DNA of 64,000 bases, taken from assembly GCA_020058765.1 (NCBI GenBank), contig JAGVDM010000003.1:52019-116018 (forward strand). Direction: 5' to 3'. Made by a program: the position numbers and the translations under genes. The stretch is from Candidatus Peribacterales bacterium. Its GTDB lineage: Bacteria > Patescibacteriota > Gracilibacteria > Peribacterales > Peribacteraceae. Of the stretch, positions 1,641 through 38,268 are shown one piece after another. Every line of letters starts with the position of its first letter. The first letter of the stretch is position 1. The notes beneath the pieces were generated by a model that saw only the letters and a program-made list of their open reading frames with translations, was not told where the DNA came from and did no database searches.

Positions 1641-1686
1641 TGCTTGTTGCTTGCGAGAGGAGTTGGTAGGCTTTGCGCGCTGAAAC

Positions 1687-1785
1687 GGGCAATTAGCTCA
1701 GCTGGGTCGAGGATCCGCCTGCGGATCCGAGCCACAGAAAAGACGCCACTGGCGCGGCCTCTGAGCAAGAATGCATTCACAGAAC
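1687..1785 (+). other. tRNA-Val 5'-half mimic / leader module (pseudo-tRNA-like element)
   Basis: GGGCAATTAGCTCAGCTGG is identical to nt 1-19 of the downstream tRNA-Val. It is followed by the hairpin GGATCCG-CCTG-CGGATCC (1711-1728), the A-rich tract CACAGAAAAGA, and the mini-hairpin CGCCA-C-TGGCG. There is no T-arm and no acceptor 3' strand. Confidence 0.6.
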
Positions 1786-1862
1786 GGGCAATTAGCTCAG
1801 CTGGTTAGAGCGCCACATTGACATTGTGGAGGTCACAAGTTCGAATCTTGTATTGCCCACCA
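1786..1862 (+). tRNA. tRNA-Val (anticodon GAC), CCA encoded
   Basis: Hand-folded cloverleaf: acceptor GGGCAAT/ATTGCCC, D arm GCTC..GAGC, anticodon arm CCACA-TTGACAT-TGTGG, T arm ACAAG-TTCGAAT-CTTGT, then ACCA. Confidence 0.95.
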
Positions 1863-2520: not shown

Positions 2521-5500
2521 ATGCTGCACAAGCAGTACCACGAACACTTCGCCTTCACATTCTCGCCCTGCTCGCAGGAGAACCGCTTGGCATGCAAGCA
2601 GCAAGGCAAGAAGAACGACGATCGGGCTGCAACACCAGAGTCCGAGCGAAGCGCACTTGAACGTGGCCGCACTCCGCAAGAAAAGCAGGACCGCATGGAA
2701 AACGATGTGGCCGGCATGACCTCGGAACGACGCCAGCGCATTCTGCGCCATGTGCCCACCGCACTTCTTGATCAGTACACGATGGGTGCGGCATACCTCA
2801 CCGACACACTCATAAGCATCCTTGGTGAGGATCAGCTCAAGCGACTACTCAAACAGCACCCGGAGTTCCGTGCGCTCAAAATTGAGCAGACTGCGGATAT
2901 TGAAACTCTGCTATCGCAGGCGTTCGAAACGGAAGGCAAGCGTAGCTCCGCACTGCTCTCCACCATGGACACACGCATGGCCATGCTCCTCACGCAGATG
3001 CTGGAAAGCAAAATCCGGCAATTCGAAGAGCTCAAGGAAGTGGCACTTCGCCATATGCAGAACGATGAAGCGCTCACGCACGCCGTGGACGCACAGGAGC
3101 AGAAGCTGTCATTGCAGTCTCGTACAATGGACGATTGGCTGCGTACCGCGAGCACCAAGGAACTCTGTGCCACGCTTGGCGTCCCAGAGGTTGCCGATGC
3201 AGATCGTGCAATGCTCCTCGGCCGCATTCGCGGCTACATCCAAAACAAGCGCAAGCTCGATCAATGGAACCTGCCGGAAATCGCACGCAACGAACACCTG
3301 CGCACCATGCTGCAGCGTACGGGCGATCTCTCTGGCGTGCAGAAGCAGCTCTACGACCAACTGCGCAAATCGCTCCCTGTAGTAGCTGGGGTGCTAGATG
3401 CGCAACTGAACGAAGAAGCGGAGAAAACCAATGCATGGCTCACCGAAGAAAAACAGCGCTACGGATCGTTGCTGCAGGACATCACGCCAGAAAATCAGGA
3501 TGACCGCGAAGCGGCATTCCAGGCGCAGCATGGCGTGAGTGCCATCGCCGTTGCTCGCGAAATCGAGGAAACCGAATCCACGATCGCTTTCGCGAAGAGC
3601 GGCGACACAATCAATGCCAATGACCCCGGCACAATTATGAATGCCAGTGCTTTGGTGGAACGGCTGTCGCAGATGCGCAGCTACCCCGATGGCACACCCA
3701 AAACCGTGGTGGACACACTACGCCCAGAACAAGAAGCCGCAGAGCAATGGGCTGGTGCTATGCGCAGTGAACTCCACGAGCTGCTCCACAAGCAGTACGC
3801 CTCGCCAGATCAGCGCCAGCAATTGGCACAGTGCTTTGGAACACCGGATGTATTTGCAACACTCACCACGCTGGAGGCCGATCTACAGGTATCAGATCAT
3901 AACCCCCGCGGTGTGAATGCTGTGGAGTACACACAGAGCAGACGACGTGCGCTGGAGCACATGGTGCGCAGTCTGCGCAGCAACCGAATTGCACAAGCAA
4001 TGAACGCGCATGCGCTACACGAAGAAGATCGCGTGCAAGCATCACAACCAGACAAAACTGTGCTAGATGTGATCCAGGAAACACGTGCACGATTGCAGGC
4101 GGCAACACAGGAGATCGTTGCCATACCCGAAATTGGGAATGGTGTGTCCGGATTGCTCAACGTGCGTCAGCACGTTATGAACCGTGCAGAGACGCTGGAG
4201 CAGGAACTGCGCCAAGCGGAGCTGCAGCGACAGACAGTAACAGGGCTCGGCTACGTGCGAGCAGAAACACGCAAGTTGGAACGTGCAGCCTTGCTCCTCA
4301 CAGACATGCGCCGCATGAAGCACTTTGTGCTCTCAGAAGAGGATTTCGAGCGCCGCACGGGTACGCGGAACCTCGCAGCATATGACCTGGCCAGCGGCGA
4401 CATTCTGGTGAACCGTGACCGCTGCGCACGCGAGAAGGCATCCATCCCCGATCTAGTTCGTCACGAGCGTGAACACGCCGTGCAGGATATTCTCACGCGC
4501 CGAGCAGGAGTGTTCCCATTCCTGCATCGCGCAGCGTTCGAGGTACTCCGCGAGAGCAACCCCGCATTTGGCGATGTGCTCCGCCGCCATGCAGGTGAGT
4601 GGGGCATTGCGCATCAGCGCGAGAAGATTCGCGCGCAAGCTGCAGACCCCGCAGAAGCACAAGCACTGGAAGACGAGCTCCTCACAGAGGAGTTGCTCAA
4701 CCGCTACGTGGATTGGAAGCGCAAGCCGCAGAACGAACTCATCGCAGGAGAGCGCGAGCTCATGGCAATGGTAGAGAATGCCGGACTCGCAGAGAACCTT
4801 CGCGGCATCGCAGAACGTGACCCAACCGCAACGACCCGCGCTGATCTGCAGGATCTACAGATGTTCCAAACTGCAGCCGGGCAGCCCACGTTGCAGGATG
4901 CAACACAGGCGCTTGCAACTGGTACCAATGCAACGACCGTTCCTGCGCAAGGCGGTGAAGCGGCAGACGAAGGCGGTAGCATAGACATGAAGGGCAAGCT
5001 CCACAGCTGCCAGAAGATGATTGTAAAACTAGAGGAGTTCTGCACAGCACAGCCGTACTACAAAGGCGATCTGGACACGACCATCGGTGAATCAAAGCAG
5101 GTCTACAACTACCTTATAGATATTTTCCGCTCGCAAACGGTGAATGGTCAGCCATTCCCCAACCCAGAGCAGCAGCCAGTATTCATCGCGCAGGTGAGCA
5201 AGCTAAAAGACGGATTAAAAGATTTAGTAGATATGACTCAAAACGTTGACAACAAGCTCCACGACCTCACAGATGAAAAACCAGGGCACATTACGGGATG
5301 GAAAGCCTTCTGGGGTAACGTCGCCTTCATGAGCCCACTTGATGTGTACCTGCTGGTGCAGGACTCCATTGAAGACGTGAAGCGCATGTGGAACCGCCGC
5401 AGCAAACAGACGCGTAGCGGCGTGGCGCAGGGGCTCTTTGGCAATATTCCAGAAAACGACCTCCCGGGGCTCCGCTACTTAGGAAGGCTCGCGAAAGAAA

Positions 5501-8963: not shown

Positions 8964-10220
8964 TTAATCCTTCGCACCCGTCACGCGCTTGCGCATGAAT
9001 GCGGGAACCTCCAGCTCCTCTTCGTTGAACTTTGGAGCAGTGTTCTGTTCAAAAGAGGAAGGCGTGGAACTGCGCGTAGGAATGCCGCGCTGATTTGCTG
9101 CCTCCTGGGGCTTGCTCGTGTTGCGTGCAAGTGCCTCGGCAAGCGGACGCTTTGCTGTGGAGCCGTATGCTGCCAGGCCCCCGAGCTCGCGCTGTTCAAA
9201 GCCCGTAGCGATCACCGTGCACTTCACTTCACCAGTGTAGTTCTCATCGATCACGGCACCGAAGATGATGTTGGCATCGGAATCCGCGGCCTCGGTAATG
9301 ATGCGTGCTGCCTCATCCACCTCGAACATACTGAGGTCGTTGCCTCCCGTGATGTTGAAGAGGATTCCCTTGGCTCCATCGATCGAGAGCTCCAGGAGCG
9401 GGCTATCCACTGCAGCACGTGCTGCCTCTGCGGCGCGGCTGTCGCCGGTGCCGTAGCCAATACCCATGAGTGCGGTACCGGCATCCTGCATGATGGTCTT
9501 CACGTCGGCGAAGTCCACGTTCACAAGACCGTGCACTGTAATGATATTGGAAATACCTTCGATAGCGTGCTGCAGCACTTCGTCTACTACCTGGAATGCT
9601 TCGGTGAGTGGTGTCGTCTTATCAATGAGCGACAGAATTTTGTCGTTCGGGATCGTGACGAGCGTATCGACTTTGTCGTGGAGCGACTCGAGTGCCTCAT
9701 CGGCCTGTTTGCGGCGCTTCATTCCCTCGAAGCTGAATGGCTTGGTGACAACGGCAACCGTAAGGATACCCATGCTACGAGCCAAATCGGCAATTACACC
9801 GATACCCCCCGTACCCGTACCACCACCGAGACCGGCGGTGATGAAGACCATGTCTGCACCCTCCAGTGCAGCCTTGAGTTCTTCTGTGCTCTCCTCGGCA
9901 GCCTTCTTGCCGATATCTGGATTGGCACCAGCACCAAGCCCGCGAGTTGTACCGCGACCAATGGTGATCTTGGTACCCGCTGGGTTGTGGTACAGCGCTT
10001 GAATATCCGTATTCACCGCTACGAATTCCACACCCTGCACCTTGGCTTCCACCATACGGCGCACTGCGTTGGAACCGCCGCCACCTACGCCGATCACGCG
10101 GATCGTCGCGCCGGCCAGCACATCGGGACGGACTTCCTTGGAACTCGCGCTGTCGTCGCGCGGGGGCTGCATGCCGCCGGGGCGGGAGCCGCTGAACAGG
10201 TTACGAAGCGTGTCTGACAT
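8964..10220 (-). CDS. ftsZ: Cell division GTPase FtsZ
   Basis: Tubulin signature GVGGGGSNAV and GGGTGTG, with a disordered C-terminal tail. Confidence 0.97.
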   Translation of the reverse strand: MSDTLRNLFSGSRPGGMQPPRDDSASSKEVRPDVLAGATIRVIGVGGGGSNAVRRMVEAKVQGVEFVAVNTDIQALYHNPAGTKITIGRGTTRGLGAGANPDIGKKAAEESTEELKAALEGADMVFITAGLGGGTGTGGIGVIADLARSMGILTVAVVTKPFSFEGMKRRKQADEALESLHDKVDTLVTIPNDKILSLIDKTTPLTEAFQVVDEVLQHAIEGISNIITVHGLVNVDFADVKTIMQDAGTALMGIGYGTGDSRAAEAARAAVDSPLLELSIDGAKGILFNITGGNDLSMFEVDEAARIITEAADSDANIIFGAVIDENYTGEVKCTVIATGFEQRELGGLAAYGSTAKRPLAEALARNTSKPQEAANQRGIPTRSSTPSSFEQNTAPKFNEEELEVPAFMRKRVTGAKD

Positions 10221-20813: not shown

Positions 20814-20833
20814 TCGACTCTGTATTGCAAAAA

Positions 20834-20860
20834 GGCGGGGTCAGAGACCCCGCCTTTTTT
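20834..20860 (+). terminator. Rho-independent terminator
   Basis: GGCGGGGTC-aga-GACCCCGCC followed by TTTTTT. Confidence 0.85.
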
Positions 20861-20960
20861 GTACCAGTTCGCGCAGGAGACGATTGACGCAGTGCACCCG
20901 ATTCGTATGATGGACGCGACGTGCAGGCTCCCGCCTGCGCGTGGTGCTCATTGCATGAAC

Positions 20961-21067
20961 GGGCGATGAGCTCAGCTGGGTCGAGTGCCGCTTGCGGCAC
21001 GAGCCATAAAGAAAAGATGCGACACTGTCGCGCTCACGCTGGGCAATCACACTATCATTCACAACAC
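20961..21067 (+). other. tRNA-Ile 5'-half mimic / leader module, copy 1
   Basis: GGGCGATGAGCTCAGCTGG matches tRNA-Ile nt 1-19 at 18/19 positions. It is followed by the hairpin GTGCCG-CTTG-CGGCAC (20985-21000), the A-rich tract, and the mini-hairpin GCGAC-ACT-GTCGC. The last 42 nt are identical to copy 2. Confidence 0.6.
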
Positions 21068-21173
21068 GGGCGATTAGCTCAGCTGGGCCGAGGATTCTCT
21101 AGAGAATCCGAGCCATAAAAAGAACGCGATCTGTCGCGCTCACGCTGGGCAATCACACTATCATTCACAACAC
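21068..21173 (+). other. tRNA-Ile 5'-half mimic / leader module, copy 2
   Basis: GGGCGATTAGCTCAGCTGG matches 19/19. Its hairpin is GGATTCTC-TA-GAGAATCC (21092-21109), a completely different sequence that is still self-complementary. Confidence 0.6.
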
Positions 21174-21250
21174 GGGCGATTAGCTCAGCTGGTTAGAGCG
21201 CGACACTGATAATGTCGAGGTCCGCAGTTCAAGTCTGCGATCGCCCACCA
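21174..21250 (+). tRNA. tRNA-Ile (anticodon GAT), CCA encoded
   Basis: Hand-folded: GGGCGAT/ATCGCCC acceptor, anticodon arm CGACA-CTGATAA-TGTCG, T arm CGCAG-TTCAAGT-CTGCG. Confidence 0.95.
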
Positions 21251-38093: not shown

Positions 38094-38192
38094 GCCACGG
38101 TAGCTCAGTTGGCCGCGTCGACGCTTGCGAGACGCGCAATCAAAGAAACTGTGCTCGGTTGGCTATCGATCTTTCCACTATTGTAGGGACAT
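38094..38192 (+). other. tRNA(CAT) 5'-half mimic / leader module
   Basis: GCCACGGTAGCTCAGTTGG is identical to nt 1-19 of the downstream tRNA. It is followed by the hairpin CGCGTC..CG-CTTG-CG..GACGCG (38114-38136) and the A-rich CAATCAAAGAAAC. Confidence 0.55.
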
Positions 38193-38268
38193 GCCACGGT
38201 AGCTCAGTTGGTAGAGCACGGGACTCATAAGCCCGGGGTCACCAGTTCAATCCTGGTCCGTGGCACCA
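38193..38268 (+). tRNA. tRNA with CAT anticodon (elongator Met or lysidine-dependent Ile2), CCA encoded
   Basis: GCCACGG/CCGTGGC acceptor with a paired G1-C72, so it is not an initiator. The anticodon loop is CTCATAA and the T arm is ACCAG-TTCAATC-CTGGT. There is an A31/G39 mismatch in the anticodon stem. Confidence 0.9.

Follow-up and report, generated by a model that had tools for sequence, protein, structure and literature searches.

A fold-back cassette of tRNA 5'-half sequence upstream of tRNA-Val(GAC) in Candidatus Peribacterales, a candidate self-masking pre-tRNA leader

The window analysed here, a stretch of 64,000 nucleotides from a Candidatus Peribacterales bacterium (GenBank assembly GCA_020058765.1, contig JAGVDM010000003.1), codes for FtsZ, FtsA, dUTPase, an M50 protease and a ComF-like protein, the closest homologues of the last being annotated as Candidatus Peribacteria/Peregrinibacteria. 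Directly 5' of its tRNA-Val(GAC) gene lies a 99-base cassette (Table 1). The features that the original prediction, made from the letters alone, had claimed for this cassette are all present, including the identity of its first 19 nucleotides (GGGCAATTAGCTCAGCTGG) with nt 1-19 of the tRNA (19/19 identical; repeat distance 99, 0 mismatches). The repeat extends to 22 nt when the preceding AAC is counted in, and the 80 nt enclosed between the two tRNA 5' copies contain no ORF.

Table 1. Positions of the Val module, its neighbouring elements and the sister modules, numbered from the first nucleotide of the window.
Feature	Position	Strand	Description and basis
Putative sigma-70-type promoter	1644..1672	+	TTGTTG, 17 nt, TAGGCT; read from sequence and from the L078 alignment
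Mimic	1687..1705	+	Exact tRNA-Val nt 1-19: acceptor 5' strand, U8 A9, D-stem 5' strand, D-loop to G18 G19
Hairpin 1 with conserved flanks	1706..1734	+	GTCGAG 1706-1711, stem-loop 1711-1728, CGAGCCA 1728-1734
A-rich tract CAGAAAAGA	1735..1743	+	Sequence; an A-rich tract occurs in every module of the family
Hairpin 2 (mini-hairpin)	1744..1754	+	CGCCA-C-TGGCG; sequence
Antisense arm	1755..1774	+	RNAfold pairing; closes the three-way junction
Tail/leader of the real tRNA	1767..1785	+	Weak -10-like AAGAAT 1767-1772; shared CATTCACAGAAC motif 1774-1785
Intact tRNA-Val(GAC), CCA encoded	1786..1862	+	ARAGORN; Rfam tRNA, 73.4 bits
Two tandem type-1 modules 5' of tRNA-Ile(GAT)	20961-21067, 21068-21173	+	tRNA-Ile(GAT) at 21174-21250
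Type-2 (variant) module 5' of tRNA-Met(CAT)	38094..38192	+	tRNA-Met(CAT) at 38193-38268

Hairpin 1 of the Val module (G-GATCCG-CCTG-CGGATC-C) comprises 7 bp and a CCTG loop, and its flanks can, as far as their bases indicate, form tandem G·A pairs as well as GGU/GCC pairs. The mini-hairpin 3' of the A-rich tract (hairpin 2) had been taken for a relative of the anticodon stem, which proved incorrect: its 5' strand CGCCAC is instead a sense copy of tRNA nt 26-31 (linear numbering), while TGGCG, the 3' strand, is complementary to nt 26-30 and begins the antisense arm. This hairpin (GCGCCAC..GGCGC) is retained in the orthologous modules L001, L058 and L072. RNAfold predicts a structure of -35.2 kcal/mol (z -1.96) in which CGGCCT of the antisense arm is paired to 1704-1709 (GGGTCG) and CTGAGC to 1696-1701 (GCTCAG), with AA and UGC of the same arm pairing to stretches of the acceptor copy. 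The 31-nt stretch after the mini-hairpin ends in CATTCACAGAAC. The Val module is therefore more than a mimic, being a fold-back of the tRNA 5' half whose sense arm has taken up hairpin 1 and the A-tract as insertions.

Within 1687-1785, ARAGORN calls no tRNA and RF00005 gives no match even at E<=10, the only real tRNA being the gene downstream. Searches of positions 1500-2000 against Rfam 15, at the gathering score and at E<=10, assign the region to no family and return only spurious eukaryotic or plastid matches below gathering. A hammerhead ribozyme, in which the core CUGANGA ... GAAA surrounds a three-way junction, was rejected: the three-way junction and G·A pairs are present, but the module reads CUGGGUCGAG / CGAGCCA without A6 and A14, and no CM match was obtained. 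Other small ribozymes were rejected because their core residues are absent and no CM matches. A kink-turn was likewise rejected, since the bulge is 1 nt and not 3 and type-2 modules lack the motif, even though tandem GA/GA pairs are possible and GGU/GCC is conserved. As for boxA antitermination (GCUCUUUAAC-like), the GCUCUAACC-like strings found in relatives become GCUCUAGCC or GCUCUGGCC as the cognate D-loop changes and are thus antisense tRNA sequence rather than boxA; in the Val module of the window, a boxA-like string is absent. Literature searches found no description of these modules, and the Peribacter genome paper (PMC4736985), which gives 46 tRNA genes, does not mention the module.

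Three sister modules occur in the window, two of type 1 in tandem before tRNA-Ile(GAT) and one of type 2 before tRNA-Met(CAT). The hairpin-1 sequences of the two Ile modules differ from each other, while their final ~42 nt are identical. Within the window, the pattern GCTCAGYTGGNNCGAG without mismatch is found only in the Val module and the two Ile modules, and CATTCACARMAC only at the tails of the same three, in agreement with the earlier claim that Val and Ile modules share CGAG flanks and a tail template. The Met module consists of mimic nt 1-19, a hairpin, an A-rich tract and an antisense segment GTGCTC..GGCTATCG, and it lacks the CGAG flanks. The arms of the Val, Ile and Met modules of the window all leave out the D-loop, their partners being the D-stem strand and some of the acceptor copy. 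A repeat search found no comparable module at the tRNA-Lys(CTT) and tRNA-Leu(CAA) genes of the window.

Pattern scans recovered about 30 modules, all from Candidatus Peribacteria/Peregrinibacteria and each directly 5' of its cognate tRNA. The genome scan, which used one genome per species, gave 53 loci with pattern matches. At 13 of these the match lies directly 5' of a tRNA, and all 13 belong to Peribacteria/Peregrinibacteria; the remaining 40 are unrelated, come mostly from high-GC genomes and are not beside tRNAs. Further modules were obtained from a metagenome scan. The 24 non-redundant type-1 modules contain the mimic, G-N-CGAG, hairpin 1, CGAGCCA and the A-rich tract in this order, the invariance of CGAG and CGAGCCA being partly a product of the search pattern; one module, found via its neighbour, reads CGAGCAA instead of CGAGCCA. 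Type-1 modules precede Val(GAC, TAC, CAC), Ile(GAT, TAT), Ala(TGC, GGC), Gly(GCC), Trp and Pro(TGG) tRNAs, while type-2 modules precede Met(CAT) and Lys(UUU) tRNAs. An N-gap, marking an assembly break, lies between two modules in L052.

The common template is thus found 5' of at least ten tRNA species at about 30 loci, for which one local duplication is an insufficient explanation. This extends the earlier observation that the module tracks its cognate tRNA in the 5' part and a common template in the rest. Every CGAG-hairpin-CGAGCCA/CAA cassette detected in 463 kb of related DNA comes after a tRNA 5' copy and none is free-standing, so that a dispersed repeat of the REP/MITE type was rejected. 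A phage origin was also rejected, as the scan of viral contigs yielded no module copies and only two chance matches within coding sequence.

Hairpin 1 retains its pairing through many compensatory changes. Among the 24 modules, 97.9% of the cells are paired, and 36 cells show double changes against 11.4 in shuffles; none of 500 shuffles reached the observed value, and slid controls collapse. In the family consensus, G19-G-U pairs with G-C-C outside a small loop, in which, from its bases, tandem G·A pairs could be accommodated. The chief rival to the leader reading set out below, a selfish or neutral repeat, is regarded here as a fairly unlikely origin of the family and would arise by recurrent partial tandem or fold-back duplication at tRNA genes with a palindromic D-arm (AGCTCAGCTGG), its uniformity being preserved by unequal crossing-over and short-tract conversion between direct repeats or paralogous modules. 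Cells would tolerate such a repeat, since its extra 5' half is hidden in the fold-back and the leader is cut away by RNase P. Neutral decay, however, would not hold hairpin 1 at this degree of pairing through so many double changes, and independent duplications are not expected to give one interior template at more than ten tRNA species. The occurrence of near-identical hairpins 1 across tRNAs and species (for example, the second Ile module of the window and the Ala module L066) speaks for the repeat.

The mimics follow changes in the acceptor stem of their cognate tRNAs, position 7 being G, T or A in Ala(GGC) modules and position 6 being A or G in Ile modules. The few mismatches are at position 8 (four T>G, one T>A), and the clustering at T8>G, which perfects the palindrome GAGCTC, is a further point in favour of the selfish repeat. 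Templated quasi-palindrome mutation would yield such clustering. In L002/L059 the mimic diverges from the tRNA at nt 5-8 and the core is retained, so acceptor identity is not always maintained. The antisense arm tracks the cognate tRNA as well: the arm base preceding GCTC matches the tRNA base following GAGC in 16 of 18 modules (hypergeometric estimate, p ~0.001), and 13 of 27 modules contain 8-19 nt exactly antisense to tRNA nt 12-33 (P<0.01 each), the longest matches being those of L058 (19 nt), L012 (18 nt) and L025 (16 nt). In 8 of 18 modules, the arm complements the real D-loop bases (TTA, CTA), where the mimic instead has GTC. The antisense matches of the Val module in the window are short (6 nt) and not significant alone.

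All relatives fetched via ComF homologues share the gene order dnaA-M50-ComF-[module]-tRNA-Val-hypothetical-large protein-dUTPase-FtsZ-FtsA. The comparison covers 11 loci, 10 of which keep the tRNA, and the rearranged locus without a tRNA (L076) is counted apart. A type-1 module is present in the window, L072, L058 and L001. Among the 10 tRNA-bearing orthologous Val(GAC) loci, 3 have only mimic nt 1-9 or 1-12 followed by unrelated inserts (L074, a Ca. Peribacter riflensis contig, L079 and L080), and 4 have no module (L075, L077, L078 and L081). In the tree of M50 plus ComF, type-1 modules are found in both deep clades, between which these proteins have a BLOSUM62-based similarity of only ~0.45-0.5, and the module-less L078 is the sister of the window. 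Relative to L078, the window has a clean extra 99 nt.

The original prediction had named module-less relatives with a clean boundary as evidence that could overturn it. L078 and three other loci are of this kind, so that the module is dispensable and is gained or lost as a unit; the reduction to a trivial duplication does not follow, as both deep clades contain type-1 modules. In their first 48 nt, the modules of the window and L072 show 2 differences, while the flanking intergenic DNA is unalignable and the BLOSUM62-based similarity of the housekeeping proteins is ~0.46. As read from these alignments, the module is old and constrained where it is kept, yet dispensable and often lost or degraded.

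The same comparison bears on the selfish repeat from both sides. Its patchy distribution, with clean empty sites even in the sister lineage, the arrays of 2-3 units (window Ile, L002, L052, L058, L071 and L025), the ~40-nt repeats of leader plus nt 1-19 (L010, L012 and L025) and the existence of other mimic breakpoints (nt 1-9, 1-12 and 1-21) are all as expected of recurrent duplication. The close relatives L053 and L054 have near-identical promoters and tRNAs but very different interiors, a rapid turnover that also fits the repeat and points to cassette exchange, to judge by the two sequences. On the other hand, the first ~70 nt are nearly unchanged between lineages whose proteins have a BLOSUM62-based similarity of ~0.46, and the Val copies of the window share only 22 nt, which is short for RecA-dependent conversion.

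We infer that the cassette originated by partial, fold-back duplication of the 5' half of a tRNA gene. Module length in the family (94-122 nt) is near that of leader plus tRNA, and some loci have a ~40-nt repeat made up of a -10 box, the leader and nt 1-19 (L070 and L052, with the -10 box in the duplicated unit); length and repeat fit a tandem duplication of the promoter-proximal leader and tRNA that was later remodelled. An attractive candidate founder would be an internally deleted tRNA-Ile, of which hairpin 1 might be the remodelled T-arm and GTCGAG might represent nt 40-45.

An integrative element was also considered, as the Val locus contains what att duplications display, an exact partial tRNA copy (19/19 nt) beside an intact gene, and shares with att sites the polymorphism of presence and absence. 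Known att sites, however, duplicate the 3' part of the tRNA around kilobases with an integrase, whereas in the module the 5' part is duplicated around ~80 non-coding, structured nucleotides. An att site was rejected on these grounds and by a negative check of L076. The related view that the module is the scar of a mobile element, which integrated in the 5' part of the tRNA gene and displaced the native fragment by its own promoter and 5' end (attL/attR-type), is considered very improbable. Consistent with a scar are the partial 5' copies with variable end points and a retained native promoter, the clean empty sites alongside occupied ones, and the partial 3' copies located 3' of tRNA-Ile in L012, which represent element-type duplications in these genomes. 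Against it, the ~80 nt between the copies hold no integrase or other gene, the module carries sense and antisense tRNA segments specific to its cognate, which an element could not carry for each target, no copies were found in viral contigs, and L076, the sole locus with a nearby integrase, has no tRNA fragment at the expected place beside ComF.

The putative promoter listed in Table 1 lies within the 46-nt gap past the divergent ComF start codon (1640). Its TTGTTG-17-TAGGCT region is conserved with L078 but falls under the threshold of the consensus scan, and its assignment as a promoter is made from the sequence and the alignment. The stretch upstream of the mimic in the window (TTGCTTGTTGCTTGCGAGAGGAGTTGGTAGGCTTTGCG) aligns with the sequence directly 5' of tRNA-Val in L078, and so the ancestral promoter would now drive the mimic. 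Since this region, conserved with a module-less relative, lies 5' of the mimic, the primary transcript most likely includes the mimic. A second transcription start inside the module is possible, given the -10-like tails found throughout the family: hexamers with at least 4 of 6 matches, including A2 and T6, occur 8-26 nt before tRNA +1 in 23 of 27 tails, compared with 11.4 in shuffles. This enrichment is as strong as at module-less tRNAs. The tail of L064, for example, carries TGCTATAAT.

These tails are an argument for a tandem-promoter unit, an unlikely alternative in which the module would act mainly at the DNA level, with the A-tract as an UP-like element and the -10 box in the tail, and the RNA fold would merely neutralise the long leader made from the upstream promoter. 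The A-tract lies ~40-55 nt 5' of the starts inferred from the tail boxes, and the -10 box is within the duplicated unit in L070 and L052, as this alternative would have it. The corresponding -35 positions, however, land in the GC-rich hairpin 2 and match poorly, and the Val tail of the window has only AAGAAT (4/6), at which the promoter scan found none. Moreover, the covariation of hairpin 1, the cognate-specific sense and antisense segments and the exact 19-nt mimic are left unexplained by a promoter.

A scan of 1687-1785 found no plus-strand intrinsic terminator, the terminator-like sites being on the minus strand only. Hairpin 2 with the A-tract matched as a minus-strand terminator, an assignment rejected as no minus-strand gene needs one here. 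The lack of a plus-strand terminator in the Val module tells against an independent small RNA of ~80-100 nt, a quite improbable alternative in which a discrete RNA made from the upstream promoter, its 3' end set by termination or by RNase P cleavage at tRNA +1, would act in trans, for instance by sequestering a protein specific for tRNA 5' halves or, in an auto-inhibited form, as antisense to its own tRNA precursor. The fold is self-contained, the junction nucleotides are conserved, the tract is A-rich, and some modules have U-runs directly past the closing helix (UUUUUU in L064; also L030 and L052), all of which would suit such an RNA. No trans target or partner protein was found, however, and the strict adjacency to the cognate tRNA favours action in cis.

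When module and tRNA are folded together in silico, the minimum-free-energy structure usually pairs mimic nt 1-7 with the 3' acceptor strand of the tRNA, and at many loci it also joins the antisense arm to the real 5' half. A native cloverleaf is predicted to lie 2-20 kcal/mol above this minimum (6.4 for the Val locus of the window, 16.0 for L058 and 19.7 for L012), these RNAfold values being thermodynamic and disregarding tRNA tertiary structure, base modification and co-transcriptional order. Folding without the mimic arm predicts invasion of the tRNA by the antisense arm at roughly half of the loci, whereas at the Val locus of the window neither such invasion nor any trapping of the tRNA by this arm alone is predicted.

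The reading preferred here, which is held tentatively and with somewhat less than even confidence, is that the module is transcribed as a self-masking leader of the pre-tRNA, arose from the tRNA by partial fold-back duplication, and competes with the real 5' half so as to modulate folding or processing. The cassette would sit between the original promoter of the tRNA gene and the tRNA and would be made as the 5' leader of the pre-tRNA, beginning with the exact ~19-nt copy, continuing with a pseudo copy of nt 22-31 broken by the hairpin junction and the A-rich tract, folding back via the arm antisense to the tRNA 5' half, and ending in a short leader, often with a -10-like box. The leader would fold first into a self-contained three-way junction, in which the mimic is paired to the antisense arm, so that folding of the real tRNA and its release by RNase P would go unhindered. 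Two strands, the antisense arm and the 3' acceptor strand of the tRNA, could each take either the mimic or the real 5' half as partner, and the leader could therefore trap the precursor by strand exchange in a non-tRNA fold and might constitute a kinetic or regulated gate on tRNA maturation. The conserved junction would be the likely site for a factor or a tertiary contact. Dispensability at the Val locus weighs against this preferred reading, as do the diverged mimic of L002/L059 and, for the Val module of the window, the short antisense matches, a fold z-score of only -1.96 and an arm not expected to trap the tRNA by itself, and the L053/L054 turnover fits recombination as well as it fits function.

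A more specific proposal, possible but doubtful, is that the modules may represent a new class of cis-acting RNA device of one CPR lineage, in which a decoy 5' half and an antisense arm would gate the folding and RNase P cleavage of about a dozen tRNAs by strand exchange, perhaps read by a protein or by conditions at the CGAG-hairpin-CGAGCCA/A-rich junction.

Among known systems, attenuators and the rRNA leader, which forms transient pairs with the 16S 5' domain, resemble the module in that a segment of the leader has two possible partners, a look-alike 5' of it and the functional sequence 3' of it. The mutually exclusive alternative helices of attenuator leaders are present in the module in silico, with the same 1:2 / 2:3 logic and with an order of synthesis that favours the harmless pairing. 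In contrast to attenuators, the product of the module is a tRNA fold instead of a terminator or mRNA, its look-alike exactly repeats the 5' half of the product itself, no sensor is known, and the module of the window has neither a terminator nor a U-tract.

T-box leaders are likewise tRNA-related structured leaders with G·A-containing internal loops at a hairpin base. They bind a tRNA by means of a codon and its NCCA end and are located 5' of aminoacyl-tRNA synthetase or amino-acid genes, whereas the module copies a tRNA and has no Rfam match; a T-box in which the GUC after the mimic serves as the Val codon was rejected, as the same GUC is found in Ile, Ala and Gly modules. In E. coli tyrT, the 178-bp repeats with rtT RNA are tandem units by the tRNA that each contain ~19 nt of a tRNA end, are co-transcribed and are released by processing. 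They differ from the module in lying downstream and containing the 3' end, and are not known to have a template common to different tRNAs or an antisense arm.

External guide sequences and split tRNAs are assembled by the pairing of a 5' piece with a 3' piece. By analogy, the separate 5' acceptor and D strand of the mimic could, according to the minimum-free-energy predictions, pair with the 3' three-quarters of the tRNA to give an acceptor/T-arm recognisable by RNase P. In contrast to split tRNAs, the tRNA downstream of the module is complete and needs no assembly, and there is neither a bulge-helix-bulge nor evidence of splicing. A tRNA with an intron at the D-loop or anticodon position, of which the mimic would be exon 1, was rejected for the completeness of the downstream tRNA and for the two large insertions that exon 1 would need.

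Bacterial tRNA output is thought to be controlled mainly by promoters and general processing enzymes. To our knowledge, no gene-specific RNA element governs the folding or maturation of an individual tRNA, and none was found in Rfam or in the literature searched. The ingredients of the module, namely partial tRNA duplication, a structured leader and alternative pairings, are known, while their arrangement is apparently undescribed. Should the modules be functional, they would be the first leaders of that kind and would offer a tractable case of an RNA that uses a copy of its product as a competitor, accessible by in vitro transcription and RNase P cleavage. Should they be selfish repeats, they would represent an unusual evolution of tRNA genes in reduced CPR genomes, combining 5' fold-back duplication with concerted evolution. 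Modules of this kind also mislead the annotation of tRNAs and promoters and break assemblies.

All tRNAs preceded by a module, the cassette of 94-122 nt that starts with a copy (mimic) of about the first 19 nucleotides of the tRNA, carry the D-arm AGCTCAGYTGG (residues 1696-1705 in the Val mimic of the window), in which two palindromes occur, AGCT and CAGCTG. Modules are absent from the tRNAs whose D-arm differs (Lys-CTT, Leu, Cys, Arg and Gly-CCC). A recurrent change in the mimics, T8>G, creates the palindrome GAGCTC. Type-2 modules share a common layout of mimic, hairpin, A-rich tract and ..TGCTCGGTTG.., and are without the CGAG flanks. The fold of the Met module of the window is not more stable than its shuffles (z 0.14).

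On the minus strand of the Val module, hairpin 2 and the complementary strand of the A-tract directly after it have the form of a textbook intrinsic terminator (GCGCCAGUGGCGU-CUUUUCUGUG), which was flagged by the scan, and the same applies to the Ile modules (see table). No minus-strand gene in need of a terminator is located to the right of the site. Upstream of the Ile module array, residues 20700-20815 comprise a tandem repeat of about 30 nt (GAGACCGAGGTTGAGACAGAAGTGGAAGTA-like) encoding an acidic C-terminus rich in Glu, Thr and Val, which is followed by a terminator and then by the predicted promoter of the array.

Features of the modules and of related loci (L-numbers) from Peribacteria/Peregrinibacteria genomes and metagenomes
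Feature	Sequence	Position	Strand
Type-2 module, tRNA-Met(CAT)	window	38094-38192	
Type-2 modules, tRNA-Met(CAT) or tRNA-Lys(UUU), relatives	L025; L069	5441-5539 (L025)	minus (L025)
Terminator-like site, Val module	window	1735-1758	minus
Terminator-like sites, Ile modules	window	21003-21035, 21112-21140	minus
Strong terminator, 3' of tandem repeat	window	20823-20862	
Good promoter (predicted), TTGACG-16-TATGAT	window	about 20884-20911	
Insert in tRNA 5' copy	L074	about 9804-9883	minus
Insert in tRNA 5' copy	L058	about 2838-2925	
Insert in tRNA 5' copy	L025	about 3520-3592	
Insert in tRNA 5' copy	L030	5' of Ala module	
3'-half fragment spanning the anticodon loop through the T-arm, 3' of tRNA-Ile	L012	about 2600-2720	
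Pseudo-tRNA-Val, upstream copy retaining nt 23-34 and 44-50	L080	9788-9940	

Short-read assemblies are evidently broken by module repeats, as an assembly gap, a run of N, lies exactly between two tandem Ala modules of one related locus (L052, 1149-1249), and the module copy number may be under-reported. In all relatives (L074-L081, compared with residues 1-1640), dnaA comes after the M50 protease and ComF genes, so that dnaA and the replication origin probably lie within 1-2 kb of the left end of the window. Over the length of the window, the cumulative GC skew declines steadily.

In several Peribacteria, the Ca. Peribacter riflensis contig among them, tRNA 5' copies carry a second small structured element of about 34 nt as an insert between nucleotides 12 and 13. 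This element, with the consensus YCCACCTTCG-hairpin-CTACGGYGGRCARG, looks like a distinct repeat family tied to these pseudo-5'-halves. Other partial tRNA copies are a 3'-half fragment and a pseudo-tRNA-Val; in the locus of the latter, a small GIY-YIG gene adjoins the tRNA.
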